This document shows, piece after piece, positions 1-13,971 of a stretch of 20,390 bases of DNA (its first letter is position 1; the number at the start of each line of letters is the position of its first letter). The position numbers and the translations under genes were made by a program. This DNA is from a virus (taxonomy: Duplodnaviria; Heunggongvirae; Uroviricota; Caudoviricetes): the IMG/VR virus record IMGVR_UViG_2579778982_000025, positions 1-20,390 of that record; one strand, written 5' to 3'. Below the pieces are notes generated by a model. It worked only from the letters and a program-made list of their open reading frames with translations. It was not told where the DNA came from and made no database searches.

Positions 1-456
1 AGACTCAGCAAAATTGCTGATAACACAGGTAAGCTGGTTGATGAGACGAAAAAACGCATTGGCCCCGGTGATATTGTCTTTAAGAACCTGCCCCGCGCAC
101 TTGCTGTTCGTGGAGAGTGGCAGGAGCGGAAGATTGCGCAGGTCAGTAAGCCTGCCCCCGCAATTACTATCACACCCGTGGTTCCGGCTCCGCTGCCTCC
201 GGCGCTGGTCCCTGTTGTTGCGGCCAGCTCCCGCCCGGTGGCGGAGGCTATACGATCGTCAGTGGCATCAGTTCCTGCAAATTCCCGTAACCGGGAGCCT
301 GTTGCCTCCGGATTTGGCGGTGAAATTCATGTTCATCTGCATAACGTTGTTACACAGAATCCCCGCGAACTGGCGAAACTGGTCGGTGAAATGGTCAGGG
401 CAGAAATGGAACGGCGCGCCCGTGCCGGACGTGGCAGTTTTTACGATAAAGATTGA
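1..456 (+). CDS. phage tail protein, C-terminal part (probable tail tape measure protein; 5' end lies outside the window)
   Basis: Frame 1 is open from position 1 to TGA at 454-456; the ORF track lists only the Met-initiated tail 178..456. Pro/Ala-rich stretch then a charged C-terminus. Sits directly upstream of a gpU-like tail gene, as the tape measure does in P2-type tail modules. Identity is from position and composition only. Confidence 0.45.
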   Translation, partial: RLSKIADNTGKLVDETKKRIGPGDIVFKNLPRALAVRGEWQERKIAQVSKPAPAITITPVVPAPLPPALVPVVAASSRPVAEAIRSSVASVPANSRNREPVASGFGGEIHVHLHNVVTQNPRELAKLVGEMVRAEMERRARAGRGSFYDKD

Positions 457-462
457 GGAGTC

Positions 463-957
463 ATGGCCATGATGATGATCTACGGCATGTTTGTTTTTGA
501 GCTGCGCACATTGCCGCATCAGCAGTTACAGCAAAACAAAAGCTGGCGGCATGTGAAAAATGAGCGCGTAAACCGCTCAGCAAGCTGGCAGTATATCGGT
601 GCAGGTGATGATCGCATCGTGCTTTCTGGCGTGCTTTATCCTGAAATTACAGGTGGCGAAGTGTCGCTTTCGCTGCTGACCACGCAGGCATATACAGGAC
701 GCCCCTGGCCTCTGATTGATGGTGTCGGGCAGATTTACGGCATGTATGTCCTGACCGGAACGAATACGACCCGTTCCGAGTTTGATCGCTACGGTAAGGC
801 GAAAAAGATAGAATTTTCACTGACACTTGAACGCTGTGATGAGGATTTGCGGGAGCGCCTGCAATCCTCATCATTCAGCGATATGCTGTCCGGCTTCAAA
901 GATAAGGTGACATCATCTCTTAACAGCGCGGCCAGTTCAGTTAAAGGGATGTTCTGA
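463..957 (+). CDS. phage tail protein, P2 gpU-like
   Basis: 164-aa ORF, N-terminus MMMIYGMFVFELRTLPHQQLQ... resembles my recollection of the P2 gpU tail protein family. Starts 7 bp after the upstream stop. Exact start (463/469/472, consecutive ATGs) is uncertain. Confidence 0.65.
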   Translation: MAMMMIYGMFVFELRTLPHQQLQQNKSWRHVKNERVNRSASWQYIGAGDDRIVLSGVLYPEITGGEVSLSLLTTQAYTGRPWPLIDGVGQIYGMYVLTGTNTTRSEFDRYGKAKKIEFSLTLERCDEDLRERLQSSSFSDMLSGFKDKVTSSLNSAASSVKGMF

Positions 958-968
958 TTTAACACAAA

Positions 969-1005
969 AACCGCTAATGGTCAGATTAGCGGTTATTTTG
1001 TTTCC
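969..1005. terminator. bidirectional rho-independent terminator between gpU-like gene and invertase 1
   Basis: Perfect 10-bp stem aaccgctaat (969-978), loop ggtcag, attagcggtt (985-994), followed by attttgtttcc on the + strand and flanked by A/T on the other strand. Overlaps the invertase 1 stop codon. Confidence 0.6.
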
Positions 1006-1580
1006 TGACTCTTCTCAATTGTTCCGCTTGATTCTCCTGCGGGGTGGTAACGATAAATCGTCGATATACCAATGCCGTAAATTATTGCCAGTTGTTTTCT
1101 GTCGTGACCGTTTTTAATCAGCCTTGCTATTTGCTCATGCTGTTCTTTTGTCAGCTTCGGTCGACGTCCGCCTGTGCGCCCCCGTGCGCGCGCTGCCGCC
1201 AGTCCGGCCAGTGTACGTTCAACAATTAATTCACGTTCCATTTCAGCCAGGGCCCCCATCACGTGGAAGAAAAAACGCCCCATTGGAGAAGATGTATCTA
1301 TGCTGTCGGTCAGACTGCGAAAATTAATCCCTCGCTCCCGTAGTTCCCCGACGAGAGAAATCAGATGTTTCATGCTTCGCCCGAGGCGATCCAGTTTCCA
1401 GACAACCAGCGTGTCACCTTTTTGAAGGCGCTTTAAAGCGCGTTTTAATCCCGGTCGGTCTGTCTTTGTCCCGCTTAATTTATCTTCAAATATTTGTTCA
1501 CATCCTGCACAAACAAGAGCGTTTCGTTGCAGGTCTGTATTCTGGTCATTTGTTGATACCCTTACATAGCCAATCAGCAC
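993..1580 (-). CDS. serine recombinase, DNA invertase (Hin/Gin/Pin/Cin family), invertase 1
   Basis: Translation (M)LIGYVRVSTNDQNTDLQRNAL...VVWKLDRLGRS...GRFFFHVMGALAEMERELIVERT...GGRRPKL...STIYRYHPAG has the catalytic-Ser N-terminus and C-terminal HTH of Hin-family invertases. Preferred start is GTG at 1578-1580, preceded by GGGAG 7 nt upstream. The ORF track's 1598 start is a TTG with no RBS. The 5' end faces the left crossover site. Confidence 0.85.
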   Translation of the reverse strand: MLIGYVRVSTNDQNTDLQRNALVCAGCEQIFEDKLSGTKTDRPGLKRALKRLQKGDTLVVWKLDRLGRSMKHLISLVGELRERGINFRSLTDSIDTSSPMGRFFFHVMGALAEMERELIVERTLAGLAAARARGRTGGRRPKLTKEQHEQIARLIKNGHDRKQLAIIYGIGISTIYRYHPAGESSGTIEKSQETK

Positions 1581-1634
1581 ACTGAATCTCCCGTCCAAAA
1601 GCGCAAATCATGCCATGCAGGCCAGAAACGGCCA

Positions 1635-1660
1635 TTATCTAAAACCTCGGTTTACAGGAA
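1635..1660. repeat. left inversion crossover site (gix/hix-like, 12-bp half-sites around a TC core)
   Basis: ttatctaaaacc-tc-ggtttacaggaa. Its inverted partner at 4685-4710 (reverse complement ttctcaaaaacc-tc-ggtttgcaggaa) differs at 3 positions and has the same core dinucleotide. Matches the known architecture of Gin/Hin recombination sites. Confidence 0.8.
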
Positions 1661-2605
1661 ACGGTAAATCAGGCTTCTGGCGCATTACAGAAAAAACAGA
1701 ACGGCGCAGATATTCCAGGAAAAGATACCTTCACCAAAAATATTGGTGCCTGCCGCGCATATAGCGCATGGCTGAATATTGGTGGCAATAGTCAGACCTG
1801 GACAACCGCACAATTCATTTCGTGGCTGGAGAGTCAGGGGGCATTTAACCATCCTTACTGGATGTGCAAAGGCTCATGGGCTTATGCAAACAATAAGGTC
1901 ATTACAGATACAGGTTGTGGAAATATTTGTCTTGCAGGTGCTGTGGTGGAAGTTATTGGCACTCGCGGCGCAATGACCATACGCGTTACTACGCCGAGTA
2001 CATCCAGCGGTGGCGGAATTACTAACGCTCAATTCACCTATATTAATCATGGTGATGCTTATGCTCCTGGCTGGCGACGAGACTACAACACGAAAAACCA
2101 GCAGCCTGCATTTGCTTTAGGGCAAACAGGAAGCAGGGTTGCAAATGATAAAGCTGTTGGCTGGAACTGGAATAGCGGCGTTTATGATGCAGATATCAGT
2201 GGCGCATCGACATTAATCCTCCACTTTAATATGAATGCGGGGAGTTGCCCTGCTGTACAGTTCCGCGTGAATTATAAAAACGGCGGTATTTTTTATCGTT
2301 CAGCGCGTGATGGTTATGGATTTGAGGCTGACTGGTCAGAGTTTTACACCACGACCCGCAAACCCTCTGCGGGAGATGTTGGTGCATACACGCAGGCAGA
2401 ATGTAACTCAAGGTTTATTACAGGTATTCGCCTTGGCGGTCTGTCATCTGTTCAGACATGGAATGGTCCCGGCTGGTCTGACAGGTCAGGTTATGTCGTT
2501 ACGGGTTCAGTTAACGGAAACCGTGATGAATTAATTGATACAACTCAGGCAAGGCCAATTCAGTATTGCATTAATGGGACGTGGTATAACGCGGGGAGTA
2601 TTTAA
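1643..2605 (+). CDS. tail fibre protein, variable C-terminal module (no constant N-terminal region or start codon in this orientation)
   Basis: Frame is open from just after TAA (1640-1642) to TAA at 2603-2605 and begins inside the crossover site with codons NLGLQETVN. First ATG is only at 1862. C-terminus ...IQYCINGTWYNAGSI is typical of Mu S / P1 S / e14 Stf-type fibre tips. Followed by a Tfa gene 2 bp downstream. Confidence 0.7.
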   Translation, partial: NLGLQETVNQASGALQKKQNGADIPGKDTFTKNIGACRAYSAWLNIGGNSQTWTTAQFISWLESQGAFNHPYWMCKGSWAYANNKVITDTGCGNICLAGAVVEVIGTRGAMTIRVTTPSTSSGGGITNAQFTYINHGDAYAPGWRRDYNTKNQQPAFALGQTGSRVANDKAVGWNWNSGVYDADISGASTLILHFNMNAGSCPAVQFRVNYKNGGIFYRSARDGYGFEADWSEFYTTTRKPSAGDVGAYTQAECNSRFITGIRLGGLSSVQTWNGPGWSDRSGYVVTGSVNGNRDELIDTTQARPIQYCINGTWYNAGSI

Positions 2606-2607
2606 CG

Positions 2608-3141
2608 ATGATGCACTTAAAAAACATTACTGCTGGCAACCCTAAAACAAAAGAGCAATACCAGCTAACGAAACAATTTAACATCAAATGGCTTTATTCA
2701 GAGGATGGAAAAAACTGGTATGAGGAACAAAAGAATTTCCAGCCAGACACTTTGAAAATGGTCTATGACCATAACGGCGTTATTATTTGTATTGAAAAGG
2801 ATGTTTCAGCAATTAATCCGGAAGGCGCAAGCGTCGTTGAATTACCTGATATTACAGCAAATCGCCGGGCTGATATTTCGGGTAAATGGATGTTCAAAGA
2901 TGGCGTAGTGATAAAGCGAACTTATACCGAGGAGGAACAGAGGCAGCAGGCAGAGAATGAAAAGCAAAGCCTGTTGCAACTTGTCAGGGATAAAACCCAG
3001 CTATGGGACTCACAGCTACGGCTGGGTATCATTTCCGACGAGAATAAACAAAAATTAACCGAGTGGATGCTCTATGCGCAGAAGGTCGAATCCACAGACA
3101 CCTCCAGCCTGCCTGTAACGTTTCCAGAACAACCAGAATGA
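2608..3141 (+). CDS. tfa: tail fibre assembly protein (Tfa / Mu U-like chaperone)
   Basis: 177 aa, [40 protein letters not shown]...[22 protein letters not shown]; conserved Tfa-like N-terminal region. Immediately downstream of the fibre module. Confidence 0.8.
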   Translation: MMHLKNITAGNPKTKEQYQLTKQFNIKWLYSEDGKNWYEEQKNFQPDTLKMVYDHNGVIICIEKDVSAINPEGASVVELPDITANRRADISGKWMFKDGVVIKRTYTEEEQRQQAENEKQSLLQLVRDKTQLWDSQLRLGIISDENKQKLTEWMLYAQKVESTDTSSLPVTFPEQPE

Positions 3142-3144
3142 AAC

Positions 3145-3172
3145 AAGGCCCGCTATCGGGCCTTAATTTTTA
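3145..3172. terminator. bidirectional terminator at the centre of the invertible segment
   Basis: aaggcccg-ctat-cgggcctt hairpin followed by aattttta, between the two convergent tfa genes. Confidence 0.6.
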
Positions 3173-3700
3173 TTCAGGCTTTTGTGGCCATTCAGGATTT
3201 GCCGTATCCACACGGCTGACCAGAACACTATAGCGTTCCCATGACTCCAGTCGTGCGCGTTCCTCATCCGTCGCCATATTCAGCCTGACAGCGCGTTCCA
3301 GTGGCTGAATAACGTTTTCTGCTTCGGAAAGTAACGCGGCCTTTTGTGATTCGGCCTGTTGTTGTTGCTCGTCTGCCGTATAAATCCGTTTAACCACAGC
3401 TCCGTCCTTAAACATCCACTTCCCTGAATCATCGGCACGACGATTGGCTGTTATATCTGGAATCTCAACGACGCTAAAGCCTTCGGGATTAAGCGTTGAG
3501 GCATCTTTGGTTATGGCAACAATAATATTATTTTCGTCGTATACAATCTTTATGGTGTCGTCCTGAAAGTTATTTACTTCTTCATACCAGTTTTTACCGT
3601 CTTCGGACCATAACCAGATAACATCAAAATTCTTTGTTAGCTGATATTGTTCTTTCGTTTTAGGATTTCCAGACTTAATATTTTTTAAATGCTGCATCAT
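3170..3700 (-). CDS. tfa: tail fibre assembly protein, alternative copy (Tfa')
   Basis: 176 aa, [41 protein letters not shown]...; paralogous to 2608..3141, with a divergent C-terminal third as expected for alternative host-range cassettes. Confidence 0.8.
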
Positions 3701-4765
3701 TTACACCTGTGCGACGTTATACCATGTGCCATTGATGTATTTTTGTATTGGCCTGAAGATGGCTTCATCATCGCCATCTACTTCACCAATGATTCTTAAT
3801 CCGGTAATTGCGTGTCCGGCTTTTTCATAACGACCACCACGCGCCATCAATTGAACAACACGTGTGCCAAGTCGGACATCTCTCACATAGCGTGAGTCAA
3901 AATTGCCATAATTGTCGGGAATAACTTGCGCACCACAAAGCCAGTTACCGTTATTATCCATGTACGCCTGACCATCGGTGCCATTGGCTGTCCTTGAGTT
4001 ATTAATCATGTAGATGCCAAATTGCTTGTTCCCCAGTCCACCTATCATGAACTTTCGGTCGGCGTGATTCTGGCGAAGTAACGCCTGAGCGCTATCAGTG
4101 TTAACTATATTTTTCCCAAAGATAGCGTTGTTATCGCGCATCTGAATCCACATACCATTACTGCTGTTAATAGCAAAACGGTCTGAAAGTGTCTCCCCTG
4201 AAACATTAAGACCACGCCCCATCGAAACAGCGCCAGTAGCGTTATTAATCCATAATGGCCTTAATCCGTTATAAGTCCCCATGTTGTCACCGGAGTTTGT
4301 CAACATGAAGTATGTATCTGAACCATCATTACGAATAAAGAATCCGTAATTACCATAAGCAATACGTAGGCCGTTTGCTGATTTTGATATGACTTCGCCA
4401 TTTACAATGGCATTGACAAGAACATACAAAGCATCCCATTTAAGATTCATCAGGTCTTTTGTTGTGGTACTTTGTTTGCTTCTCCATTTGAAATATTCAT
4501 TGCCGTTGTCGCCTGTCTCAAACCACATGTATGAATCAGTGTCACCATCGGCATCATTTTTAAATCCAATCTTCGCCCAGTCAGTATTTCGAATCCAAGC
4601 AAGGATTGAGTCATTTTCAAAAGTAAGCCCACCGGACAAGGTATCGCCATTCTTTTGCACGGCGTTACCAACCCTGTTTACCGTTTCCTGCAAACCGAGG
4701 TTTTTGAGAATTGCCTCTGTGTCGTCTGGACGATATTTTTTTCCGCTTTTAGCAACAATCGCGGT
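3701..4765 (-). CDS. tail fibre protein, alternative variable C-terminal module, fused to a 24-codon remnant of a constant region
   Basis: Minus-strand frame is open from the stop at 4766-4768 down to 3701. Passes through the right crossover site with the same NLGLQETVN codons as the left module. Only 24 codons (TAIVAKSGKKYRPDDTEAILKNLG) lie outside the site. C-terminus ...IQKYINGTWYNVAQV. The ORF-track start at 4693 is a TTG inside the crossover site. Confidence 0.7.
   Translation of the reverse strand, partial: TAIVAKSGKKYRPDDTEAILKNLGLQETVNRVGNAVQKNGDTLSGGLTFENDSILAWIRNTDWAKIGFKNDADGDTDSYMWFETGDNGNEYFKWRSKQSTTTKDLMNLKWDALYVLVNAIVNGEVISKSANGLRIAYGNYGFFIRNDGSDTYFMLTNSGDNMGTYNGLRPLWINNATGAVSMGRGLNVSGETLSDRFAINSSNGMWIQMRDNNAIFGKNIVNTDSAQALLRQNHADRKFMIGGLGNKQFGIYMINNSRTANGTDGQAYMDNNGNWLCGAQVIPDNYGNFDSRYVRDVRLGTRVVQLMARGGRYEKAGHAITGLRIIGEVDGDDEAIFRPIQKYINGTWYNVAQV
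4685..4710. repeat. right inversion crossover site (inverted partner of 1635-1660)
   Basis: Plus strand ttcctgcaaaccgaggtttttgagaa; reverse complement aligns to the left site with 3 mismatches. Confidence 0.8.
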
Positions 4766-4774
4766 TTAGAAAGT

Positions 4775-5329
4775 ATGCAATATGGTTATGCGAGGGTGTC
4801 AACTTTTGACCAGAATTTGGAATTACAACTGGAGGCGCTCAGGAGTTCAGGATGTGACCGGATTTTTGAAGATAAAATATCCGGTGCTAAATCAAAACGA
4901 CCAGGACTTGATAAGCTACTGAAGGTGTTACGTCCGGGCGATACGGTTATTGTCTGGAAGCTGGACCGAATGGGGCGTTCTCTGATTCATCTTGTTGATT
5001 TACTTAACCATTTTTTATCAAACAACATTGAGTTTATTTCGATTACGGAAGGGATAAAAATTAGCACTTCAATTGGCCGCTTTGCCTACACGATGCTGAG
5101 TGCAGTCGCAGAGATGGAGCGGGAAAATATGATTGAAAGAACGCGTGCAGGATTGGCGGTGGCAAGGGCTAACGGCAGGATAGGAGGACGCCGCTCAAAG
5201 CTGGCACCAGAGCAATGGGAACAGATCGGAAGGCTTATTGCGAATGGTGTTTCACGTAAGCGGATAGCGATTATCTTCGATGTTACCTTATCCACGCTTT
5301 ACCGCAGGTTTCCGGCTGGGAATCATTGA
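4775..5329 (+). CDS. serine recombinase (invertase/resolvase family), invertase 2
   Basis: MQYGYARVSTFDQNLELQLEAL...VIVWKLDRMGRS...AVAEMERENMIERT...GGRRSKL...STLYRRFPAG, 184 aa. ATG at 4775; the ORF-track 4655 start is an unsupported N-terminal extension. Candidate promoter TTGCCT (4711-4716) - N17 - TATTTT abuts the right crossover site. Clearly divergent in sequence from invertase 1. Confidence 0.8.
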   Translation: MQYGYARVSTFDQNLELQLEALRSSGCDRIFEDKISGAKSKRPGLDKLLKVLRPGDTVIVWKLDRMGRSLIHLVDLLNHFLSNNIEFISITEGIKISTSIGRFAYTMLSAVAEMERENMIERTRAGLAVARANGRIGGRRSKLAPEQWEQIGRLIANGVSRKRIAIIFDVTLSTLYRRFPAGNH

Positions 5330-5460
5330 CTGGAGTTAGGCCAGTAGTATGATGCTCGCAAAACGAGATCCAATTTAGATCCTTTTACTGGTGGATTATC
5401 GTTCGATCAGTGAGAGACTTCGTGCATGACCGAAAGTGTTGTGGTAGAGTTCTCTTAAAA

Positions 5461-5473
5461 CCACGTAACGTGG
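5461..5473. promoter_or_regulatory. operator-like palindrome CCACG-TAA-CGTGG upstream of the repA control region
   Basis: Perfect 5-3-5 inverted repeat with the same CCAC(A/G)-N3-(C/T)GTGG architecture as the sites clustered in the cI/cro intergenic region; next to a TATGAT -10-like hexamer at 5475-5480. Confidence 0.4.
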
Positions 5474-5511
5474 TTATGATTGTGGGTGTCTGGTTGGAAA
5501 CTGACCAGATA

Positions 5512-5630
5512 TGGAAACAAAAAGCCCGCAGATAAATCTGCGGGCTTCTTGCGACATCCACGGAAAACCAACAACAACAATCCATGGGCGCCTCGACAAC
5601 TCCCATTATACGTTGGTTTTCCGTGGACGC
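5512..5630 (-). ncRNA. candidate CopA-like antisense RNA of the repA leader (IncFII-type copy-number control)
   Basis: Two hairpins in the repA leader. A long stem-loop has a 15-bp stem ccacggaaaaccaac (5558-5572) / gttggttttccgtgg (5612-5626) and a ~39-nt loop. On the minus strand it is followed by aagcccgcaga-ttta-tctgcgggctt (5522-5547) and then a T-run (complement of 5509-5520), a rho-independent terminator oriented for minus-strand transcription. The RNA ends are not mapped. Confidence 0.45.
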
Positions 5631-5642
5631 AAGAGCGAACAT

Positions 5643-6491
5643 ATGGATAGACCAATGCCGTCTCTACGTTCCGCTTACGTTTGTAATTTGTCGCCGGAGT
5701 TCCAGCCTCCAAAGCACCATACGCACAAGCTGCCGCTGGTGTTATCTGATGCTTTACAGCGCATTAATGGGCGTGATCTTACGTGTGAGGTTGCGTTCTA
5801 CGTTAATCAACCGTCAGAGCGGAAGCGCCGGATAAACGAGCATCGTCGTCGGGCGATTAATGCTGTGATCGCTGCGATTTTGCACCATGTAAACATCATT
5901 TCTAAGCGGGTTCTGGCTAGTGCTGAGGCGTTGGCTGATTTTTGCGGCCTGTCTACCGTATCCGAAGCTGGGAACAAGTCTATAACGCGCTGTACAAGGG
6001 CGTTGTCGCAACTGAAAGCGTTAGGGTTTATTGATTATGAACGTCGCTGGGATCGGGTGAATAAACAGTATTGGCCAGCGAAAATAGAGATTCGTGATCA
6101 ACTGCTGGAAACCGTTGGTATTACTGAACAAGCATGGAGACGTGCGGTTAGCCAGAAACTTAATTACTTCAATGCGAAGAATAGCGAACGGCTTAAAAAA
6201 GCGATAACGGAGGCTGATTATAAGCGTATTGTTATTCAGGAGCAGATGGAGAATGTATGGCGTCAGAGGAAGACGGCCAGAGAGATAAAGGCAAAACAGA
6301 AAGCAGCGGAGAGAGCTGCGCGTCTTGTTCGGGAAAAGGGAGAGGCCGAACTTCGTCATCAAATCACTAGAGAGGTTAGCCAGGAATTTGCTGATGGCAT
6401 GTATCCTGGAGCTGACCTTGCATATTTACGATCCCTCGTTGAGCAGCGTTATAACAGGTTAAGAAAGACCTGGAAATCACTCCAACATTAA
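5643..6491 (+). CDS. repA: plasmid replication initiator RepA (IncFII RepA1-like)
   Basis: ...GNKSITRCTRALSQLKALGFIDYERRWD... resembles the R100/R1 RepA1 motif (..KLSITRATRALTFLSELGLITYQ..), with an Arg/Lys-rich C-terminal half. Preceded by antisense-RNA-like hairpins and followed by a DnaA box plus AT-rich region. Start at ATG 5643 (MDRPMPSLRS...) is preferred because the ORF-track start at 5511 lies inside the antisense terminator hairpin. An IncFII-type leader peptide may exist in another frame ending at 5648-5650, but I cannot place its start. Confidence 0.75.
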   Translation: MDRPMPSLRSAYVCNLSPEFQPPKHHTHKLPLVLSDALQRINGRDLTCEVAFYVNQPSERKRRINEHRRRAINAVIAAILHHVNIISKRVLASAEALADFCGLSTVSEAGNKSITRCTRALSQLKALGFIDYERRWDRVNKQYWPAKIEIRDQLLETVGITEQAWRRAVSQKLNYFNAKNSERLKKAITEADYKRIVIQEQMENVWRQRKTAREIKAKQKAAERAARLVREKGEAELRHQITREVSQEFADGMYPGADLAYLRSLVEQRYNRLRKTWKSLQH

Positions 6492-6599
6492 CCCACCTTA
6501 ATGATGAATCCGGTTTTACCGGAGGATTATCTACGTCGCAATAAAATATCTGTTCAAAAAACAAGCTAAATTAATTTTCTCTAAACCTGAACACAGCAA

Positions 6600-6740
6600 A
6601 AATATCGCCTTCACAGGCATCGGCTAATAAAGTTATCCACAGTTTTGATATGTATATGCAAATGGTTTTTTATAATAGATGCACTAAACAAATAAATGCA
6701 AAATCACTTTCTTTTATTAAGACTTTCTTTATTTAACTTA
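6600..6740. other. putative replication origin (DnaA box plus AT-rich unwinding region)
   Basis: Perfect DnaA box TTATCCACA at 6633-6641, ~140 bp downstream of repA, followed by ~100 bp of very AT-rich sequence (6642-6740). Matches the repA-then-oriR layout of IncFII replicons. Confidence 0.5.
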
Positions 6741-7134
6741 CGCAGGCTTTGCCTGTGAATATGTTCGCCCTTGCAGCGAGCTAAAGCTCGCGCCGGTTCG
6801 AGTCGCTACGCTCAAATATACCTCCTCCGGCACTTGCCGGAGGCATGGAGCAGCCTGATCATCCTTTTCGAAACGGCGCGTTTCGAACTATACAAAATCA
6901 ATTTATATAAGGCCGAAATGAGGCCTACGGCCGGGCTTTGCAGGAGGAAGGAGCGAGCCTTATCGATAAACGTCGATAAATACGCACACAGTAGCCATCA
7001 GAACGCGATAAAACGTAAGAAACATCATTTCCTATTAGACATAGAAAACTTGTCTTATACGCAATGTAGTAAATTTCTATTGCCACATAGGAAAAGATTT
7101 CCTACCATCGTAGATATAATAAATGGAGATGGTT

Positions 7135-7422
7135 ATGGATAAAGATACTGTTTTAAAAATGTTGAATCCGGCTTGTTTAAAAAAAGCGGATGAATGGGAA
7201 TCTCCTACATGTGGAGAAGTTCGGGCAGTCATTGGCCTGACCGGAATGAGCGGCTCGCAGTTGGCCAAAAAACTAGGCTTAAAAGATAGTCGCAATGTTC
7301 GCAACTGGCAGATGTTAAAGGAGTCCACATCCAGATCCAGCATTCCGTATGCAGCCTGGGCGCTGCTGTGTTACTTCGCTGGGTTAGGGTTAATCTTCAT
7401 TGATAACAAAACAGATGTTTGA
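7135..7422 (+). CDS. hypothetical protein with putative HTH motif and hydrophobic C-terminus
   Basis: ATG 7135 preceded by GGAG (7125-7128). 95 aa, MDKDTVLKMLNPACLKKADEWESPTCGEVRAVIGLTGMSGSQLAKKLGL... ending in IPYAAWALLCYFAGLGLIFI. No family recognised. Confidence 0.5.
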   Translation: MDKDTVLKMLNPACLKKADEWESPTCGEVRAVIGLTGMSGSQLAKKLGLKDSRNVRNWQMLKESTSRSSIPYAAWALLCYFAGLGLIFIDNKTDV

Positions 7423-7445
7423 AACATGCAAATATGAGGTTTGTT

Positions 7446-7709
7446 ATGGAACTTGTACGCAAAACACGCAAAGAGTTCTTGGACCTGTATCGCATGGGAG
7501 CTTTCACTTGTGTTGTGGCTACCCAGGACGAAGTGACAAAAAGCTGGCGGCTTTTTGCTCTCAATAAAAAAGGGATTGCCGTTTTCATTGAAAAAGCCCG
7601 TGGTGGTATCCGCGAATGGGCGGGATTGAATTATGTGGCTGATTTTTGCGCAGCTATGGGGATTCGTCGCTGGGAAGTCCATATGCCAGGAGTAAAGTCA
7701 CAAAAATAG
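7446..7709 (+). CDS. hypothetical protein
   Basis: ATG 7446 preceded by GAGG with 6-nt spacing, 24 bp after the upstream gene, so likely one operon. 87 aa, MELVRKTRKEFLDLYRMGAFTCVVATQDEVTKSWRLFALNKKG.... ORF-track start 7419 is probably too long. Confidence 0.45.
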   Translation: MELVRKTRKEFLDLYRMGAFTCVVATQDEVTKSWRLFALNKKGIAVFIEKARGGIREWAGLNYVADFCAAMGIRRWEVHMPGVKSQK

Positions 7710-7891
7710 GGCTTTCGCGTCGAAAATGAGGCGAAACTGAAAACGAGATTTCATTAACAAATAAGCAACATAAAAAACGGTGGAAAACGCCCAGGAAAAC
7801 ATGATCTTTTGAGCGGATTTTTTAGATCCGACAATGAACGGTGATCCGGTGGTGCCGATAACGTCCATTATGTTAAATAGCCCCGTTTTTC

Positions 7892-7945
7892 TTGAAATTA
7901 TAACCTACGGGTTATATAGTTAGTGATATAAACTACAGGTTATAG
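7892..7945 (+). promoter_or_regulatory. sigma70-type promoter with two operator palindromes for the toxin-antitoxin operon
   Basis: TTGAAA (7892-7897) - 17 bp - TATAGT (7915-7920). Inverted repeats tataacc-tacg-ggttata (about 7899-7916) and atataaactacaggttatag (7926-7945) overlap the -10 and start region. RBS AGGA at 7944-7947. Confidence 0.55.
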
Positions 7946-7953
7946 GATTGAGC

Positions 7954-8301
7954 ATGTGGACGGTACTTTTTAGCCAGCGATTTGACGACTGGCTAAATGA
8001 GCAAGAAGACGCTCTTCAGGAAAAGGTTTTGGCTGATTTGAAAAAGCTACAGGTTTACGGACCTGAGTTACCCAGGCCATATGCCGATACCGTAAAAGGT
8101 TCTCGGTACAAAAATATGAAAGAGCTTCGCGTTCAGTTTTCTGGCCGTCCGATAAGAGCCTTTTATGCGTTCGATCCGATTCGCCGGGCCATCGTTCTTT
8201 GTGCAGGAGACAAAAGTAACGATAAACGGTTTTATGAAAAACTGGTGCGTATAGCTGAGGATGAGTTTGCAGCACATCTGAACACACTGGAGAGCAAGTA
8301 A
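7954..8301 (+). CDS. higB: type II toxin, RelE/ParE superfamily (HigB-like, phage Gp49-type addiction-module killer)
   Basis: MWTVLFSQRFDDWLNEQEDALQEKVLADLKKLQVYGPELPRPYADTVKGSRYKNMKELRVQFSGRPIRAFYAFDPIRRAIVLCAGDKSNDKRFYEKL.... Toxin-first order. Stop TAA overlaps the ATG of the downstream HTH gene by 1 nt. The ORF-track start 7948 is a TTG; ATG 7954 has the RBS. Confidence 0.7.
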   Translation: MWTVLFSQRFDDWLNEQEDALQEKVLADLKKLQVYGPELPRPYADTVKGSRYKNMKELRVQFSGRPIRAFYAFDPIRRAIVLCAGDKSNDKRFYEKLVRIAEDEFAAHLNTLESK

Positions 8302-8600
8302 TGAGAACATTAGATGAGGTGATTGCCAGCCGTTCACCTGAAAGCCAGGCGCGAATTAAAGAAATGGCAGATGAGATGATTCTTGAGGTCGGCTTGCAGA
8401 TGATGCGTGAAGAACTCCAGTTATCACAAAAACAGGTTGCTGAGGCGATGGGTATAAGCCAGCCAGCAGTAACAAAGCTGGAGCAGCGCGGAAATGATTT
8501 AAAGCTGGCGACGTTAAAACGTTACGTTGAAGCTATGGGAGGCAAATTAAGCCTGGATGTTGAGCTTCCCACAGGAAAGCGAGTAGCGTTCCATGTCTAA
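8301..8600 (+). CDS. higA: type II antitoxin, XRE-family HTH (HigA-like)
   Basis: 99 aa with central HTH (LSQKQVAEAMGISQPAVTKLEQ). Translationally coupled to the upstream toxin gene. Confidence 0.7.
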   Translation: MRTLDEVIASRSPESQARIKEMADEMILEVGLQMMREELQLSQKQVAEAMGISQPAVTKLEQRGNDLKLATLKRYVEAMGGKLSLDVELPTGKRVAFHV

Positions 8601-8612
8601 CATAATGTAAGT

Positions 8613-8640
8613 GTAAGGCCCCATTGGGGCCTTACTTATT
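8613..8640. terminator. bidirectional terminator
   Basis: gtaaggcccc-attg-gggccttac hairpin followed by ttatttactt, between convergent genes. Confidence 0.6.
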
Positions 8641-8924
8641 TACTTACCATTTTTGCGGTTTTTTTCGGACTTCATAAGCTGGCTAACGCGCCCTGGTGTG
8701 ATATTTAACATGCGGCTTACTTCAGCTTGTGATCCTACTTCCTCTACTAGCGATGCAACATAGCGAGATTTTCCTGAGGAGGTTAATCCATTATATGTTG
8801 CTCGTGCGACTTTTCCCTGAGCTTCTCTCATATCAACTAATGCCTGAGCAACTTGCTCAAAACCTTTAATTGTTACTTCTGTTAATGCTCGAATAGCATC
8901 AATTTCAGATTTTGGTTTAGCCAT
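8640..8924 (-). CDS. putative DNA-binding regulator (C-terminal HTH)
   Basis: MAKPKSEIDAIRALTEVTIKGFEQ...VGSQAEVSRMLNITPGRVSQLMK. ATG at 8924 with GAGG 6 nt upstream. ORF-track start 8936 is a TTG. Confidence 0.5.
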   Translation of the reverse strand: MAKPKSEIDAIRALTEVTIKGFEQVAQALVDMREAQGKVARATYNGLTSSGKSRYVASLVEEVGSQAEVSRMLNITPGRVSQLMKSEKNRKNGK

Positions 8925-8972
8925 TTGGTACCTCAAATTGTTTAAAATGTGTTAATTACAAAATTCAGCCGA

Positions 8973-8997
8973 TACCATGTTCAATGGTATACCATTG
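8973..8997. promoter_or_regulatory. palindromic operator candidate (CAATGGTATACCATTG)
   Basis: Perfect 16-bp palindrome at 8982-8997, overlapping a second inverted repeat TACCAT-N5-ATGGTA (8973-8989), in the divergent intergenic region between 8640..8924 and 9192..9572. Confidence 0.4.
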
Positions 8998-9085
8998 CTG
9001 AAATGTCTTTTTCAAGACCTTGCCAATAAGCTAAACAAAAATGTTTAATCATTCGCCTAAAAAAACACCAGTCACTATTATTTAT

Positions 9086-9186
9086 ATAATTATATATTTA
9101 TATAAAAAGTGCTTTACAGGTGGGAAAAAATTTCCTAAGGTTATACCCGAAACCGAGCGATACCCGCCCTGGTTAAACCGGAGATA
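9086..9186 (+). promoter_or_regulatory. repeated promoter / 5'UTR cassette, copy 1
   Basis: Near-identical to 19153..19252. Contains TTTACA - 17 bp - TAAGGT (TATGGT in copy 2) promoter-like hexamers, a ~55-nt leader and a GGAG RBS, preceded by AT-rich palindromes. Confidence 0.5.
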
Positions 9187-9191
9187 ACCCG

Positions 9192-9572
9192 ATGAGCATG
9201 ATTAAAATCCGCAAAAACGCTTTCCTTAAAATTCAAACTATCCTGGCTGGTTCTGTTGGCGTGATTTGCCGTTCTTCTTCAAGCCGCATCGATGACGGCT
9301 ACGATGATGAGTACCGTGTGTCCTCGTGCGATGAGGCTTTAACCTGGCTGAAGGAGAATCAGGAACGTGCCCAGGTATATCTGGAAACAGAGAACGGCAA
9401 TCAGATGCTGCGTATTAGCGGTCGTTATGGATTTGAAACTACATTCATGGCCTATTTTAATCAGGCTTACTTTGACAAGGAGTTGGCCTGGTACACTGAT
9501 CGCATGAGCAAAAGCGAGCCAGCCCCGATTACACCGCCGAACAATAAACCATTTTTATTCCTCGTTAAGTAA
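9192..9572 (+). CDS. hypothetical protein
   Basis: 126-aa ORF driven by the repeated promoter cassette. Acidic, no recognisable motif. Confidence 0.5.
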   Translation: MSMIKIRKNAFLKIQTILAGSVGVICRSSSSRIDDGYDDEYRVSSCDEALTWLKENQERAQVYLETENGNQMLRISGRYGFETTFMAYFNQAYFDKELAWYTDRMSKSEPAPITPPNNKPFLFLVK

Positions 9573-9580
9573 ACACAATA

Positions 9581-9607
9581 CGCAAAGTGTCATTTTGACA
9601 CTTTGCG
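9581..9607. promoter_or_regulatory. 27-bp perfect palindrome (hairpin or operator)
   Basis: cgcaaagtgtca-ttt-tgacactttgcg, 9 nt after the 9192..9572 stop and 29 nt before the XRE-family gene. No U-tract follows, so it is an operator or RNA stability element rather than a classic terminator. Confidence 0.4.
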
Positions 9608-9635
9608 AGTGTTAATATTGTGCGAGGAGGATGCT

Positions 9636-9908
9636 ATGACGGGTTATGAATTGAAATTATGGCGTCGTGGGATGAACTGGACGCAGGAGCGAGCCGCCGA
9701 AGAATTTGGGATATCGTTGGCTACATATAAGCGATATGAGAAGGGGGAGCCGCCGAGGGTCATTGAGATGGCCATTCGCGTTCTGTCGTTTGACGATATG
9801 GTGAAGGATCTTTCACACCTTGATAAAGACGCGATTCTGTTAAGGCTGCAAACCCTTGTATGGGAAAAGGTTAAAGTGTCGTCAGAATTGGAACAAGGGA
9901 TCAAATGA
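9636..9908 (+). CDS. XRE-family HTH transcriptional regulator
   Basis: MTGYELKLWRRGMNWTQERAAEEFGISLATYKRYEKGE.... RBS GAGGAGG (9624-9630). The ORF-track start 9603 is upstream of the RBS. Confidence 0.7.
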   Translation: MTGYELKLWRRGMNWTQERAAEEFGISLATYKRYEKGEPPRVIEMAIRVLSFDDMVKDLSHLDKDAILLRLQTLVWEKVKVSSELEQGIK

Positions 9909-9957
9909 TCCTTTACGGATCGTTTTATGGTGGTGTAATGTAAGCGCCAGAAAGACA

Positions 9958-9985
9958 AAAACCGCCTTGCCGGGCGGTTTTCAGT
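9958..9985 (+). terminator. rho-independent terminator
   Basis: aaaaccgcc-ttgccg-ggcggtttt hairpin, then tcag. Confidence 0.5.
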
Positions 9986-10543
9986 CTGAAATTTAAATCT
10001 TGCTTGGTAGGCTGGATTTAAAAAGACACCTCTTGATTGGGGCGGCTTTCTTGCGTCTAAAGATAATCAAATCTTTTTGCGCCTGCAACCCCTTTTTTAC
10101 TGGTGCCTGTTTCAGACTCACGCTCGCGTCGTTGTCTTTGCCACTTCGTTGGGTTCGGTGTTTTTGGGCGGAGTGGCGCGCGGGTATGCGTACAAGGGGA
10201 AAGTGTGCTGACGCAAGCCAGGAACAGCGATCTAAACTAAGTCGAGTCTGAGAAAGGCAGGAGTGCGACAACTCGCCTGTGCTCTATGAGCAGAAGAAGG
10301 TATATCAGACGACCAATGGCATGATTGTGGGCCACAGGGCGCACACGGCGGCGAAGCATTGGAAACGATGTGGAGCTATCTGGTGGCATGAGTTCCGGTA
10401 CTCGATCTCGAGCTTTTTTTGATGCTTTTGAGAAGGGGCCGGAACTCCGGTAAAGGGCACCCTGTATGGGGGGAGGGGGGGTTGTGTCTAAAGGAAGATC
10501 CAATACGATATTGCTTTACCCTTATATCTAAAAGGAGATTTCT

Positions 10544-11179
10544 ATGGGGATGCTGGTGGCGTTTATTATTAGCCTGATTTTGTGTTTCTTCGTAGTTCGT
10601 GGTGCATATCGGAAACAATGTGGCCCATCTTCTGGTAGTAAGTTCAAAGCTGTTTTAGTGAGTGGGTTTCTTGGGATTGCTACTTTTGTTGTTGTTAATA
10701 CTCTTGCTGCTGTGGCCTTGATTCCAGAAGACTCCGGCACTACGGCTACTACCGGAGCTGCTTTCGATGGCGTGACCGTAGATAAGTTTAAGCAGCTATA
10801 TAATGATGACCTTGAAGGTATCGCTACATCAGGAAAATCCACCTCCACTATAAGAATTAAGTCAGTTAAACAAGGTAACAACACCGTTGAATTTGCCATC
10901 AATTCATCTGTTAACGGTCGAGCTAGAGTTGATAAGGATGGGAAGATTTCAGAGTTATTATGGCGAGTATCTAAGCCTAGCTCTGATTCCTTGCTTTCTA
11001 TGGCCGTAGCTGTTGAAGTCTTGGATGCATCAAGTGATAGAGACACAGTGATCGCGCAGTTAGAGCAGATTGTTAAATCTGATACGCAGAAAGCTGAGTT
11101 TAAGACTAAGAGAGGCGAGTATTACGTTTCTCGTGACAAATCAGGGCACGTGTCGCTACTGATTACACCGAAATATTAA
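10544..11179 (+). CDS. membrane protein with two predicted N-terminal transmembrane helices, function unknown
   Basis: Strong RBS AAGGAG 7 nt upstream. Hydrophobic segments MLVAFIISLILCFFVV and VLVSGFLGIATFVVVNTLAAVALI, then a Ser/Thr-rich soluble domain. Confidence 0.65.
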   Translation: MGMLVAFIISLILCFFVVRGAYRKQCGPSSGSKFKAVLVSGFLGIATFVVVNTLAAVALIPEDSGTTATTGAAFDGVTVDKFKQLYNDDLEGIATSGKSTSTIRIKSVKQGNNTVEFAINSSVNGRARVDKDGKISELLWRVSKPSSDSLLSMAVAVEVLDASSDRDTVIAQLEQIVKSDTQKAEFKTKRGEYYVSRDKSGHVSLLITPKY

Positions 11180-11188
11180 GAATTGAAG

Positions 11189-11216
11189 AAGCGCCCAAAT
11201 CGGGCGCTTTGTTTTA
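11189..11216. terminator. bidirectional terminator
   Basis: aagcgccc-aaatc-gggcgctt followed by tgtttt, between convergent genes. Confidence 0.6.
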
Positions 11217-12356
11217 TGGTTTTGCACCTGCGGCCAGTTTATCCGCCGATATCTTTATCAGTTCCTGTAGTGTCCTGGCTGGTAGGTTTGCATCCAGTAC
11301 GCTGAGTATGCTGCTGTGATCTGCCTGGTCGACTACTTTGCCTGTCGGTGGTAGTAGCTTGAGCTGAGGATTCAGGTTTTCGTCAAAGCTGATCAGTGCT
11401 CTGGCGTTTCTGAGCAGATCAAGAAGTAAGGCTGATATCACATTTTCCTGAGTCATTGCTGGCAGATTTAGCGCCGCTTTGGTTTTCCCTGTTGCCTTGT
11501 CAAACTCCTTGATTAGTTCCTTCCTGTAGTTCGGTTCCGTTAATAGCCGATTATGCTCTGTTGCCGCGCGGATAATCGTTTTTTCCTGGTACAGTCGTTT
11601 AGCCAGATCACGCTCGTACTGTGTTTTTAACACGCTGCTGATAGCGTTAAAGGCTTCAATGTAGGCCAGCTTGATATCTTTCACGCTTGGACCGTCGATG
11701 CTCTCCATGAGTAAGGTAAATCCGTCTTTTGTCATGCGATAGATTGTTATTTCGCGGTCGCTTCCTTCCAGCGGTCGTTGCTCTTTAAAGAAGTGACGCG
11801 CCGCAGCCGTGCGAGGAATGCGTAGCGCATCGATGGCCATAACGATGGAATTGTTTGTGGTGCTGAATGCCTGGGCAACATCGGCTGAGGTTGTGAGTGG
11901 CTCGTTGTTGCACACTTTAATGTAAAACATCGGTTTGGCGTTGAGCGTATCGACAACCTCACGAGCATTGTTTGGCGAGACGGTAACGGTCGCGGCCGTT
12001 TGCGCGTTCTGGTTGAAGTAGCAGTCTTCCAGCCGTTCGAACACATCCCACGCTTGGTTAGTTTCAAGCATTTTGGCGTGACGTGCAGCCCCGCGTTCGG
12101 TCCAGAGGATTAGTTTTCTAACGTTATTCGCGATGGTTTGAAAATCTCTTAAAGAGATTTTCAAACTTTGGAGATCTGTACCTTTTACAACTATGAAATG
12201 TTTTCCTTCTGTAAACCGGGACTTATTACGGTGGTGATTTCTGTGAAGACATTCGACGCTACAGCCATATAGTTTGGCAAGCAGCTCCGTGGTGATAACG
12301 GGGATCTGGTTATGCAGGATAGGCTGTAGGGTGTTAACGGTCGGAAGCGTTTTCAT
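11214..12356 (-). CDS. phage antirepressor-like protein (ORF6N/Rha-type N-terminal DNA-binding domains, long C-terminal region)
   Basis: 380 aa. N-terminal ...ITTELLAKLYGCSVECLHRNHHRNKSRFTEGKHFIVVKG... resembles ORF6N-type antirepressor domains; a second similar segment ...TTSADVAQAFSTTNNSIVMAIDAL follows. Family assignment is from memory of motifs only. Confidence 0.55.
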   Translation of the reverse strand: MKTLPTVNTLQPILHNQIPVITTELLAKLYGCSVECLHRNHHRNKSRFTEGKHFIVVKGTDLQSLKISLRDFQTIANNVRKLILWTERGAARHAKMLETNQAWDVFERLEDCYFNQNAQTAATVTVSPNNAREVVDTLNAKPMFYIKVCNNEPLTTSADVAQAFSTTNNSIVMAIDALRIPRTAAARHFFKEQRPLEGSDREITIYRMTKDGFTLLMESIDGPSVKDIKLAYIEAFNAISSVLKTQYERDLAKRLYQEKTIIRAATEHNRLLTEPNYRKELIKEFDKATGKTKAALNLPAMTQENVISALLLDLLRNARALISFDENLNPQLKLLPPTGKVVDQADHSSILSVLDANLPARTLQELIKISADKLAAGAKP

Positions 12357-12640
12357 TTTGCACCTCCCATAACTACTTTGGTTACGAGGGAGATTTTTGC
12401 GTCAGAAACAGCGTTATCGTTGCTGGCGATGCGCATAGCTTCGCGCTCGATGATTTCAGCCAGGCGGAATTTATCGGCGTATGAGGCTTTCTTGAGAAGG
12501 ATCTTTACGAGGTTGACGTAATAGTCATGGGGTAAGTTTGTCATGATGATAGTTCCAGTTTTGATATTGGAATAATCACCACCGCTGACGCCAATCAGTG
12601 AGGTGGTGAGACGTACAGGGTTGGCGTAACCGGTCATCAT
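12353..12640 (-). CDS. hypothetical protein
   Basis: Stop overlaps the start of the antirepressor-like gene in an ATGA arrangement, suggesting translational coupling. Start ambiguous between 12640 and an internal ATG (MTNLPHD...). Confidence 0.4.
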   Translation of the reverse strand: MMTGYANPVRLTTSLIGVSGGDYSNIKTGTIIMTNLPHDYYVNLVKILLKKASYADKFRLAEIIEREAMRIASNDNAVSDAKISLVTKVVMGGAK

Positions 12641-12844
12641 GATACCCGGCGAGCCTTACGGCTCCCCCGCACGCCCCACCATAATTCGGGTGTAGCTGTG
12701 CTTTACGCATAAAAAAACCGCTAACGCGGTATGCGCCATGATGATTATCGGGACGCCAATCCCGACCGTAGATTTTGCTACGGCTCGGAAAGTGTCCACC
12801 AATGGCGCATTTATGTCAATACAGCGGGATTTTAACAGACTAAA

Positions 12845-12857
12845 CCACATAGTGTGG
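12845..12857. promoter_or_regulatory. operator-like palindrome CCACA-TAG-TGTGG
   Basis: Same motif class as the cI/cro operators; in the divergent intergenic region 12641-12994. Confidence 0.4.
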
Positions 12858-12883
12858 GTTTGAATGCGGGGCTTTTAATTTTC

Positions 12884-12912
12884 TTGATATGCTAAAAACG
12901 GGAATGTATAGT
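12884..12912 (+). promoter_or_regulatory. sigma70-type promoter for 12995..13534
   Basis: TTGATA (12884-12889) - 17 bp - TATAGT (12907-12912). Confidence 0.5.
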
Positions 12913-12994
12913 TCCTGTAAGGAATCAATTAGTCCTGAGTTATGGTGTTTTGTTAAAGTCGGGAACAAGAAAAAATTCAGTATGGGGATAAAAA

Positions 12995-13534: not shown

Positions 13535-13553
13535 TGAGTGAAGAAACAAAAAA

Positions 13554-13580
13554 ACCGTCCTATTGAGGACGGTCCTTTCG
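13554..13580 (+). terminator. weak rho-independent terminator
   Basis: accgtcc-tattga-ggacggt followed by cctttcg, preceded by an A-run. Confidence 0.35.
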
Positions 13581-13726
13581 TGCTGATCGGATTCGCGGTC
13601 CTTTCAGCATTACGTTGTTGTATAAACAACCACGCAAGCACAAGCAGCAAATTGATTTTACTCAAAAGGTAATAATAGTCCACTATTATACATCAAAAAA
13701 TTGTGGTTCTTGTTGTGTCAGCAAAC

Positions 13727-13739
13727 TCACAGATTGTGG
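13727..13739. promoter_or_regulatory. operator-like palindrome TCACA-GAT-TGTGG
   Basis: Same motif class; flanking aaactcac matches the site at 16685. Confidence 0.35.
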
Positions 13740-13971
13740 GTAGGTTACTGATTTTGTGAAAATAAACTGTTTTTTTCGTTTAATTTCTTTCCTATTACTA
13801 ATCTTAAAATAATCGTAAAATACCTGTGGACCTTCCCGCCGATTCGCACCCGGGCACCGACTTTAGGGGAGGATTTCCTGTTGCCGTACATGCAAGCACA
13901 AGCAGCCGTGCTTGCTCTCGCGTTGTTTTCGTCGGTGGGGATGTCGTGAAACGGCCTGTAAGGGCCACACA

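Follow-up and report, generated by a model that had tools for sequence, protein, structure and literature searches.

Among described host-range switches, the G segment of phage Mu (Gin/gix; also D108) is 94 to 96% identical at the DNA level to the cassette analyzed here and has the same gene plan, with convergent S'v-U' and U-Sv pairs. Mu has the constant part of S entering the segment at its far end, a position that a second invertase gene and repA occupy in our locus. The C segment of P1 (Cin/cix), P7, D6, and the P segment of e14 (Pin) belong to the same switch class, and none of them has two invertases. In Mu, the Fis-dependent recombinational enhancer sis is located in the first 240 nt of gin.

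The locus lies in a 20,390-bp stretch of DNA (the window), which is the entire contig JICA01000105.1 of GCA_000691105.1, the draft genome of the enteropathogenic Escherichia coli (EPEC) isolate S6685. A sequence-only reading had described paired sites enclosing convergent fibre-tip/Tfa pairs, with two invertase genes that each face a site and no constant fibre (Sc) region, and had placed the locus in the Mu G/P1 C/e14 P type of switch. All of this was confirmed in the sequence (Table 1), and the class assignment agrees with the presence of invertases, paired TC-core sites, and convergent fibre/Tfa sets. No Sc region was found anywhere in the 20,390 bases.

Table 1. Features of the cassette and of the genes beside it (window coordinates)
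Feature	Position	Strand	Remarks
Tape-measure gene, P2-type, C-terminal end	1-456	+	Truncated by contig end; left arm; contig gene call
gpU-type tail protein	469-957	+	Left arm; Pfam Phage_P2_GpU, E 1.5e-38
Hairpin (likely terminator, function inferred)	961-1002	.	Between gpU and invertase A, whose genes converge
Invertase A, Gin-type serine DNA invertase, P88-type prophage	993-1580	-	Resolvase + HTH_7
gix-type crossover site TTATCTAAAACCTCGGTTTACAGGAA	1635-1660	+	Invertase A side, TC core
Variable fibre tip, Mu S'-like	1643-2605 (called gene 1862-2605)	+	gp37_C
Tail-fibre assembly protein (Tfa), U-type	2608-3141	+	Caudo_TAP, E 5e-37
Tail-fibre assembly protein (Tfa), opposite set	3170-3700	-	Caudo_TAP
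Second variable fibre tip, Mu Sv-like	3701-4702	-	Gp34_trimer, E 5e-37
gix-type crossover site TTCTCAAAAACCTCGGTTTGCAGGAA	4685-4710	-	Invertase B side, TC core
Spacer between gix site and invertase B	4711-4774	.	Native plasmid sequence; includes the "24-codon remnant" (4694-4765, minus strand)
Invertase B, serine DNA invertase, ~48-kb phage-plasmid	4775-5329	+	Resolvase + HTH_7
repA, IncFII-family	5511-6491	+	IncFII_repA, E 1.3e-43; opens 15.7-kb plasmid arm reaching contig end

The window contains two gix-type sites and no others, where 100 shuffles predict 0.00. They are inverted relative to each other, differ at three positions, and share an identical TC core; the left site departs from phage Mu gix at one base and the right site at three. 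A longer inverted repeat surrounds them (1630-1695/4650-4715, 66 nt, 74%). The hairpin beside gpU corresponds to a separate inverted repeat (I9) with 18-nt arms, 89% complementary, and a 6-nt loop. Inside the segment, two fibre C-terminus and Tfa sets converge (gp37_C/Caudo_TAP and Caudo_TAP/Gp34_trimer). Both invertases carry PF00239 and PF02796 and are 56% identical to each other, and their 5' ends lie 67 to 77 bp from the site centres, each gene facing a site. Invertase A matches the Gin structures 3UJ3/4M6F (E ~1e-100) and shares 157 of 195 residues (80%) with Mu Gin; the first 240 nt of its gene are identical to Mu gin at 234 positions. The stretch of invertase B corresponding to the sis region reaches only ~55 to 65% identity. 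In itself, the cassette is a tail-fibre host-range switch of the ordinary Gin/gix type.

The left arm belongs with P88-type prophages. Over positions 1 to 1634, identity is 99.9% with the N63 prophage and 99.7% with that of H10407, and at least 80% of this arm is present in 618 complete genomes. The truncated tape-measure gene shows 99.9% identity to the tape-measure region of the E. coli N63 prophage, gene order around gpU is that of P88, N63, and H10407, and the tape measure-gpU-invertase block is collinear with P88-type (Xuanwuvirus) prophages at near-identity. The outer flank of the left site is one base away from the invertase-side flank of P88, E110019, ETEC4090, and one further contig of the collection (L028). 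Over window positions 1 to 4710, P88 (Xuanwuvirus, Peduoviridae) and its relatives (N63, ETEC H10407, E110019) are 94 to 96% identical to the contig, and N63 and H10407 are nearly identical to it over 1-2289. The P88-type order of tape measure, gpU, invertase, gix site, and cassette is retained in the contig; after the cassette, however, these prophages carry a fibre gene of ~2.3 kb followed by tail protein I and baseplate J, whereas the contig continues with plasmid genes. N63 and H10407 read gpU, gin-like invertase, cassette, and full-length Sc. Their cassette is inverted relative to the window, and relatives carry either orientation. The exact invertase A protein occurred in 5,241 blocks of the collection, and all 10 of the long contexts shown were canonical.

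The right arm (4711-20390) is 97 to 99% identical to plasmids of ~47 to 52 kb that carry Sc, cassette, invertase, and repA in that order, and 24 plasmids match 80% or more of its length (~97 to 98% identity). Its relatives are ~48-kb IncFII-RepA phage-plasmids (E. coli ATCC 25922 plasmid CP009073, pP136-7, pFDN11_2, and Klebsiella aerogenes pC161661-2), themselves related to the Yersinia phages vB_YpM_39/44. With these the contig has in common the spacer, invertase B, repA, a RelE/HTH pair, an ORF6N antirepressor, ParA, and a repressor. In the phage-plasmids, unlike in the contig, baseplate J and tail protein I are followed by a full fibre gene that enters the other end of the cassette; some family members have no cassette and carry only a fixed 948-aa fibre. 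The outer flank of the right site is of the plasmid type, and the exact invertase B protein was found in 2,331 blocks, in the normal order Sc-cassette-invertase-repA. Among the records listed, all that cover at least three quarters of the plasmid-arm query are plasmids of 39 to 58 kb. In complete genomes, 131 places matched the plasmid arm, 130 of them plasmid-borne and one chromosomal; 60 records sampled from these places, the chromosomal one not among them, were all plasmids.

Matches to prophages end at 4701/4710 and matches to plasmids begin at 1631/1635. These alignments show that the arms derive from two different elements, each otherwise canonical with one invertase and one full-length Sc, and that homology to each parent ends exactly at the gix sites. 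The contig has two invertases and no Sc because it links the invertase-side flanks of both elements across a ~3-kb homologous cassette.

Both fibre frames enter the sites through the codons NLGLQETVN; on the left, a TAA stands directly ahead of the N, and on the right, 24 open codons (TAIVAKSGKKYRPDDTEAILK...) lie downstream of a stop. The sequence-only reading had noted these features and had concluded that neither orientation encodes a complete fibre, which holds for the contig. An Sc gene in frame across a site, absent from the contig, is present in every relative of both arms that was examined, so the missing Sc is a property of the contig and not of the elements. The idea that the constant part is supplied elsewhere stands only in the trivial sense that both parental Sc genes are expected on other contigs or at a reciprocal junction. 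The 24 codons had been taken for an Sc remnant. We rejected this candidate: they are native plasmid spacer, found in all three switch-bearing plasmids compared (pC161661-2, the ATCC 25922 plasmid, and pFDN11_2) with two to four base differences. Genuine Sc ends read ...KVGRDILAKSTVAAVIEYLGLQETVN.

These comparisons also bear on the proposal that the locus is a stable, evolved orphan module, either a decayed switch or a repurposed inversion unit maintained with two dedicated invertases. In its favor, the contig shows no Sc reading into either end, two intact invertase genes, and a TC core in both sites. Against it, both arms are 97 to 99.9% identical to elements that possess Sc, the supposed remnant is plasmid spacer, and the layout is conserved in no other genome, plasmid, or phage record. 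A decayed switch was likewise rejected, since all fibre-tip and Tfa genes remain intact and three of their four products exactly match alleles of canonical, working phages (such as D6 and P88-type prophages). The 247-aa fibre tip was found as an exact protein on nine contigs, where every context extending past the cassette, other than the source contig, was canonical prophage. For the Tfa encoded at 2608-3141, 279 blocks contained the exact protein, and all 10 contexts were of canonical P2-, P1-, or Mu-like type; the exact protein encoded at 3170-3700 came up in phage D6 and in Mu-like, P1-like, lambdoid, and P2-like settings, again canonical throughout. The called Sv-like product (319 aa) was unique to the S6685 contig in the whole collection (153 billion gene positions). 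The orphan-module proposal is close to refuted, and we regard it as highly improbable.

We searched for the same layout elsewhere. Both arms occurred together in no record among 5,426 complete E. coli genomes, 72,556 plasmid records, and 50,697 phage records, and exact-protein look-ups with both Tfa proteins, both fibre tips, both invertases, and RepA returned no match with both arms. Other chimeras that surfaced in the look-ups (contigs L022, L026, and L054) had different partners, and L026 was joined on an N gap. The only "integrated" example found, the OU349839.1 chromosome, is a scaffolding gap, in which a stretch of Ns exactly at the gix site links the plasmid "inside" to the chromosome. 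Contig L022 (137 kb) consists of about one whole plasmid, a cassette, and one whole P1-like genome; its end sites have unlike cores, TT (the P1-like cix site) and TC, and therefore cannot be partners in site-specific recombination. The joins in OU349839.1 and L022 are proven artefacts at the same spot.

We infer, with a probability of roughly 0.6, that the join between prophage and plasmid in S6685 is likewise an assembly misjoin. The S6685 genome would then hold a chromosomal P88-type prophage and a separate ~48-kb phage-plasmid, with a homologous cassette in each, and Velvet, working with 100-nt-class reads and 300-bp inserts, would have switched between the collinear cassette copies at a shared stretch. 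In the real genome, each cassette would keep its own Sc and work as a normal switch. The 2014 draft of this EPEC isolate is a Velvet assembly of Illumina reads with 300-bp inserts (PMC4056304); given a cassette of ~3 kb, neither single reads nor read pairs can bridge it. Clonal EPEC cultures hold both cassette orientations side by side (PMC4272514), which adds paths to the assembly graph.

The abundance and the mosaic makeup of the cassette speak for this reading. It occurs in 1,551 of the 5,426 complete E. coli genomes, in up to seven places per genome, and its identity is 92 to 97% across Mu-like, P1/D6-like, P2-like, and lambdoid prophages and phage-plasmids, with tracts of perfect identity of 300 to 800 bp between cassettes of different elements. 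Draft assemblies usually break at the cassette; blocks carrying it were on 2- to 5-kb contigs only in 52/78 and 152/279 cases. Within the window, near-identity passes from N63-type prophages (1-2289) to other P88-type prophages (2390-2819), the D6/P1-like contig L008 (2704-4500), and plasmids (4675 onwards); the Sv' allele that results is the unique product noted above. Sliding mismatch maps against about 50 relatives, used to search for a crossover, found the cassette to be mosaic in all of them, so that no parent pair can be fixed. The maps contain a single clear transition, the loss of near-identity to N63/H10407 at ~2290, and the best plasmid match to the right half of the cassette reached only 93.8 to 94.6%, where near-identity was sought.

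Several observations weigh against a misjoin. The contig is free of gaps (no Ns in the 20,390 bp scanned), whereas Velvet normally breaks at unresolved repeats instead of reading through them. The core sequence common to the gix sites (~25 nt) is below the usual Velvet k-mer size, so each junction between flank and cassette must itself have read support, and doubt is confined to linkage through the cassette interior. Comparators are few, since the plasmid arm is present for the most part in only 42 complete genomes. Mosaicism was seen in the cassettes of all phages compared, so both the patchwork in the contig and its one-off Sv' allele may have arisen naturally. The same gap-free assembly is what a real join would give, in which exchange between the cassettes of the phage-plasmid and the P88-type prophage produced a cointegrate. 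Such a cointegrate would have one junction of the type invertase A-cassette-invertase B, as in the contig, and a reciprocal junction, Sc(plasmid)-cassette-Sc(prophage). It could arise by a RecA-dependent crossover within the 92 to 97% identical cassette, for which the perfect-identity tracts suffice, or by a rare intermolecular reaction of a Gin-family enzyme at gix. All four parental site types read ACCTCGGTTT[A/G]CAGGAAACGG with a TC core and identical outside-to-inside polarity, so any pair would be chemically compatible. The transition near 2290 is that expected of a single crossover, and widespread cassette mosaicism indicates that such exchanges occur in nature. Cin-mediated plasmid fusions and P1-p15B hybrid phages, reportedly described by Iida, Arber, and colleagues in the 1980s, would be precedents; our literature search on cointegrates formed through such cassettes found nothing directly relevant. 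We nevertheless consider a cointegrate rather unlikely. The layout is missing from all 5,426 complete genomes, the plasmid arm is almost always extrachromosomal, the one apparent integration is a scaffolding gap, and L022 cannot be a site-specific product. Moreover, a cointegrate between 3-kb repeats would be expected to resolve readily and so would seldom predominate in a culture.

The main value of the contig is as a caution: odd architectures on contigs with fibre cassettes need to be checked against closed genomes first. Gin/Cin-type cassettes are shared, often multicopy, and flip in culture, so that short-read drafts are especially prone to chimeric contigs at these loci. Every component of the contig is already known, even if the join is real. 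Should the contig instead be correct, a doubtful prospect, the phage-plasmid would have integrated into a chromosomal prophage via the shared host-range cassette, by homologous or invertase-mediated recombination, leaving one silent cassette between two invertases and another between two constant fibre genes. This would document the docking of a phage-plasmid into a prophage and bear on the origin of cassette mosaicism, and shared invertible cassettes would be portable docking sites at which temperate elements are fused and re-sorted.

The window carries two inverted 26-bp gix-like sites that differ from each other at three positions and share a TC core; shuffled sequence contained no match to the 26-bp site pattern. 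Relative to phage Mu gix, the left site has one change and the right site three, and both fall within a longer imperfect inverted repeat (1630-1695 and 4650-4715). Between the sites (1643-4702) lie two convergent pairs of genes, each encoding a fibre tip and a tail-fibre assembly chaperone (Tfa), and both fibre frames cross their site with the residues NLGLQETVN. Invertases A and B flank this cassette with their 5′ ends toward the sites, the distances from start codon to site centre being 67 and 77 bp. Each is a serine recombinase that combines a Resolvase domain with an HTH_7 domain, and their mutual identity is 56%. The left fibre frame is shut by TAA directly before the site entry; the right one has a stop followed by only 24 open codons, and a constant fibre region (Sc) is absent throughout the 20,390-bp window. 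Judging from the sequence, the arrangement as printed does not permit expression of either tip as a fibre. The observations made in the sequence-only reading were all confirmed, whereas its interpretation as an orphan, decayed or repurposed host-range switch is largely unsupported.

Features of the window and their coordinates
Feature	Position	Strand	Remark
Invertase A gene	993-1580	-	left flank
Left gix-type site	1635-1660	+	26 bp
Fibre tip	1643-2605	+	first set
Tfa chaperone	2608-3141	+	first set
Tfa chaperone	3170-3700	-	second set
Fibre tip	3701-4702	-	second set
Right gix-type site	4685-4710	-	26 bp
Invertase B gene	4775-5329	+	right flank
repA 5′-end or leader hairpin	5518-5551		16-nt arms, 94% complementary
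repA 5′-end or leader inverted repeat	5557-5627		perfect, 16 nt, 39-nt spacer
Toxin and antitoxin genes	7948-8600		
ORF6N/Rha antirepressor gene	11214-12356	-	
C4 antisense RNA	12599-12686	-	Rfam, above gathering score
isrK	12711-12784	-	Rfam, above gathering score
ryfA-like RNA	13826-14122	+	Rfam, above gathering score

No record in the phage, plasmid and complete Escherichia coli genome collections searched covers both flanks. Two classes of record were found, each comprising one flank plus the cassette, with match ends falling exactly at the sites. Phage P88 (Xuanwuvirus, P2-like) and many chromosomal prophages match from position 1 to 4701/4710, with the annotated order tape measure, gpU, invertase (reverse strand), cassette, a ~2.3-kb fibre gene that reads back into the cassette, tail protein I and baseplate J. 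Window 1-1634 is 99.9% identical to a prophage of E. coli N63 and 99.7% identical to one of ETEC H10407. Exact copies of the invertase A protein were found in 5,241 blocks of the assembly collection; of the long contexts shown, 10 of 10 were canonical. The second class consists of ~48-kb phage-plasmids (the ATCC 25922 plasmid, pC161661-2, pFDN11_2 and pP136-7), which match from 1631/1635 onwards and have the order baseplate J, tail protein I, a fibre gene of ~2.3 kb directed into the cassette, the cassette itself, invertase and repA. Window 4711-20390 (the plasmid arm) is 97 to 98% identical to 24 such plasmids; in complete genomes 130 of its 131 places are plasmid-borne, and all listed records covering at least three quarters of this query are 39-58-kb plasmids. 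Each parent is therefore a classical switch, with a single invertase and a single constant fibre gene, and the window contains the invertase-side flank of each.

The 24 open codons had been taken for a remnant of Sc. However, all three plasmids compared carry the same stretch from the right site up to the invertase B gene, bar two to four base changes; it is native plasmid spacer, not a leftover from deletion of a fibre gene. In both parents the true Sc end reads ...KVGRDILAKSTVAAVIEYLGLQETVN and has a different outer half-site (TTATCGAATACC). With the layout conserved nowhere and no decay in any part, an orphan, decayed or repurposed inversion module is very improbable.

The window is the entire contig JICA01000105.1 (20,390 bp) of assembly GCA_000691105.1, as identified by exact-protein match. 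According to the genome announcement (PMC4056304), this assembly represents EPEC isolate S6685 (O114, phylogroup B1); it was built by Velvet from paired-end Illumina reads of 300-bp-insert libraries. The 3-kb cassette is too long for reads or read pairs to span, and linkage across it therefore rests on the path of the assembler through a region with at least two similar copies. We infer, with a probability of about 0.6, that the contig is a misjoin, with the cassette common to two canonical switches as the bridge between them, in which case each cassette would keep its own constant fibre gene in the cell. The draft technology and the strict plasmid location of the right arm favor a misjoin, as does the absence of the layout from closed genomes (at least 80% of window 1-6500 in one place in 0 of 5,426 complete E. 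coli genomes). Also in favor, JICA01000105.1 is the sole contig with the minus-strand fibre-tip allele as called. For the plus-strand tip and both Tfa genes, all contexts shown that reach past the cassette are canonical except the source contig. Against a misjoin, the contig is gap-free, Velvet mostly halts at unresolved repeats, and typical k-mers exceed the length of the core common to the gix sites, so that only the interior linkage of the cassette is doubtful.

Known as a hazard for assembly, the cassette is present in 1,551 of the 5,426 complete genomes, with as many as seven places in one genome, and in Mu-like, P1/D6-like, P2-like and lambdoid contexts, and in most drafts it stands alone on a 2-5-kb contig (52/78 and 152/279 blocks). 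Clonal EPEC cultures hold both orientations together (PMC4272514). Among the longest contigs with invertase B, three were unusual. In OU349839.1 (locus L026 of the assembly collection, 3200482-3215036), the plasmid appears inside a 5.28-Mb chromosome, but the join is an N run starting at the gix site (about locus position 6345), a proven scaffolding artefact in a public "complete" record at the same site as the join in the window; this too favors a misjoin in S6685. Locus L022 (ABABOT010000011.1, 137,345 bp) joins the plasmid to a whole P1-like genome as cin-cassette-invertase B; besides the cassette, position arithmetic assigns about 44.8 kb to the plasmid and about 88.9 kb to the P1-like genome, as expected if the assembler had walked through a single shared repeat that was collapsed. 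Its end sites have TT (left) and TC (right) cores and therefore could not recombine with each other. The third, CABEEY010000004.1 (L023/L024, 77 kb), has two copies of the plasmid, each with a different cassette. In JBFYFD010000022.1 (L054), a lambdoid Stf-Tfa adjoins repA; these draft contigs (L022, L054 and L023/L024) join the plasmid to other elements via fibre or Tfa homology.

Mismatch maps against relatives put window 1-2289 close to identity with N63 and H10407 (0 to 2 differences per 100 nt), whose cassettes are flipped relative to the window; beyond 2289, differences from both rise to 1-14 per 100 nt. Positions 2390-2819 are identical to other P88-type prophages, 2704-4500 differs at two positions from a D6/P1-like contig, and the plasmid match takes over from 4675. 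This pattern fits a template change near 2290, whether recombination or the assembler produced it; all phages compared have mosaic cassettes, and the pattern alone therefore does not decide between the two. A real prophage-plasmid cointegrate, a distinctly less probable explanation, could have arisen by homologous crossover inside the cassette or by a rare intermolecular invertase reaction, the latter made possible by the TC core and same polarity common to all parental sites. A cointegrate predicts a reciprocal Sc-cassette-Sc junction.

The left contig end lies inside the tape-measure gene, yet identity to N63 extends past it, which suggests that S6685 has a second P2-like prophage or another fork in its assembly graph. 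The right end (20330-20390) is an AT-rich, low-complexity run. The two repeats in the leader or 5′ end of the repA ORF, the first a near-perfect hairpin, may be IncFII-type copy-control structures; other annotations place the repA start further downstream, at 278 to 282 amino acids. The RelE/ParE-family (Gp49/HigB-like) toxin gene and HTH antitoxin gene are kept in the plasmid family and also occur on unrelated small ~24-kb plasmids (about 77% identity). The C4 antisense RNA lies just upstream of the ORF6N/Rha gene, which suggests a phage-plasmid with P1/P7-type c4/ant immunity control.

Many IncFII-RepA phage-plasmid relatives (L051-L053, L055 and L057) have neither invertible cassette nor invertase, and carry a fixed 948-amino-acid fibre, Tfa and a hexapeptide-repeat acetyltransferase directly 5′ of an identical repA. 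Several closed plasmids match only from window position ~5298. Since some members lack the cassette and others match only from that point, the fibre switch is an exchangeable module in this family.

Gin, Cin and Pin each work with Fis bound to an enhancer within the 5′ portion of the invertase gene to invert a segment; inversion sets either fibre tip, with its chaperone, behind the constant fibre gene. Mu Gin and invertase A share 80% identity, and the first 240 nt of the invertase A gene, corresponding to the part of gin that contains the Mu enhancer, match gin at 234 of 240 positions. The invertase A gene is itself mosaic: its first ~360 nt are identical to gin at 53 to 60 positions per 60-nt block, and identity falls to about 50% over the C-terminal DNA-binding domain. 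All components of the window are already known elements, at 94 to 99.9% identity, and the unusual architecture is most probably a short-read assembly artefact; failing that, it would be a transient cointegrate formed by two known elements. The Gin/Cin/Pin mechanism would apply under both explanations.
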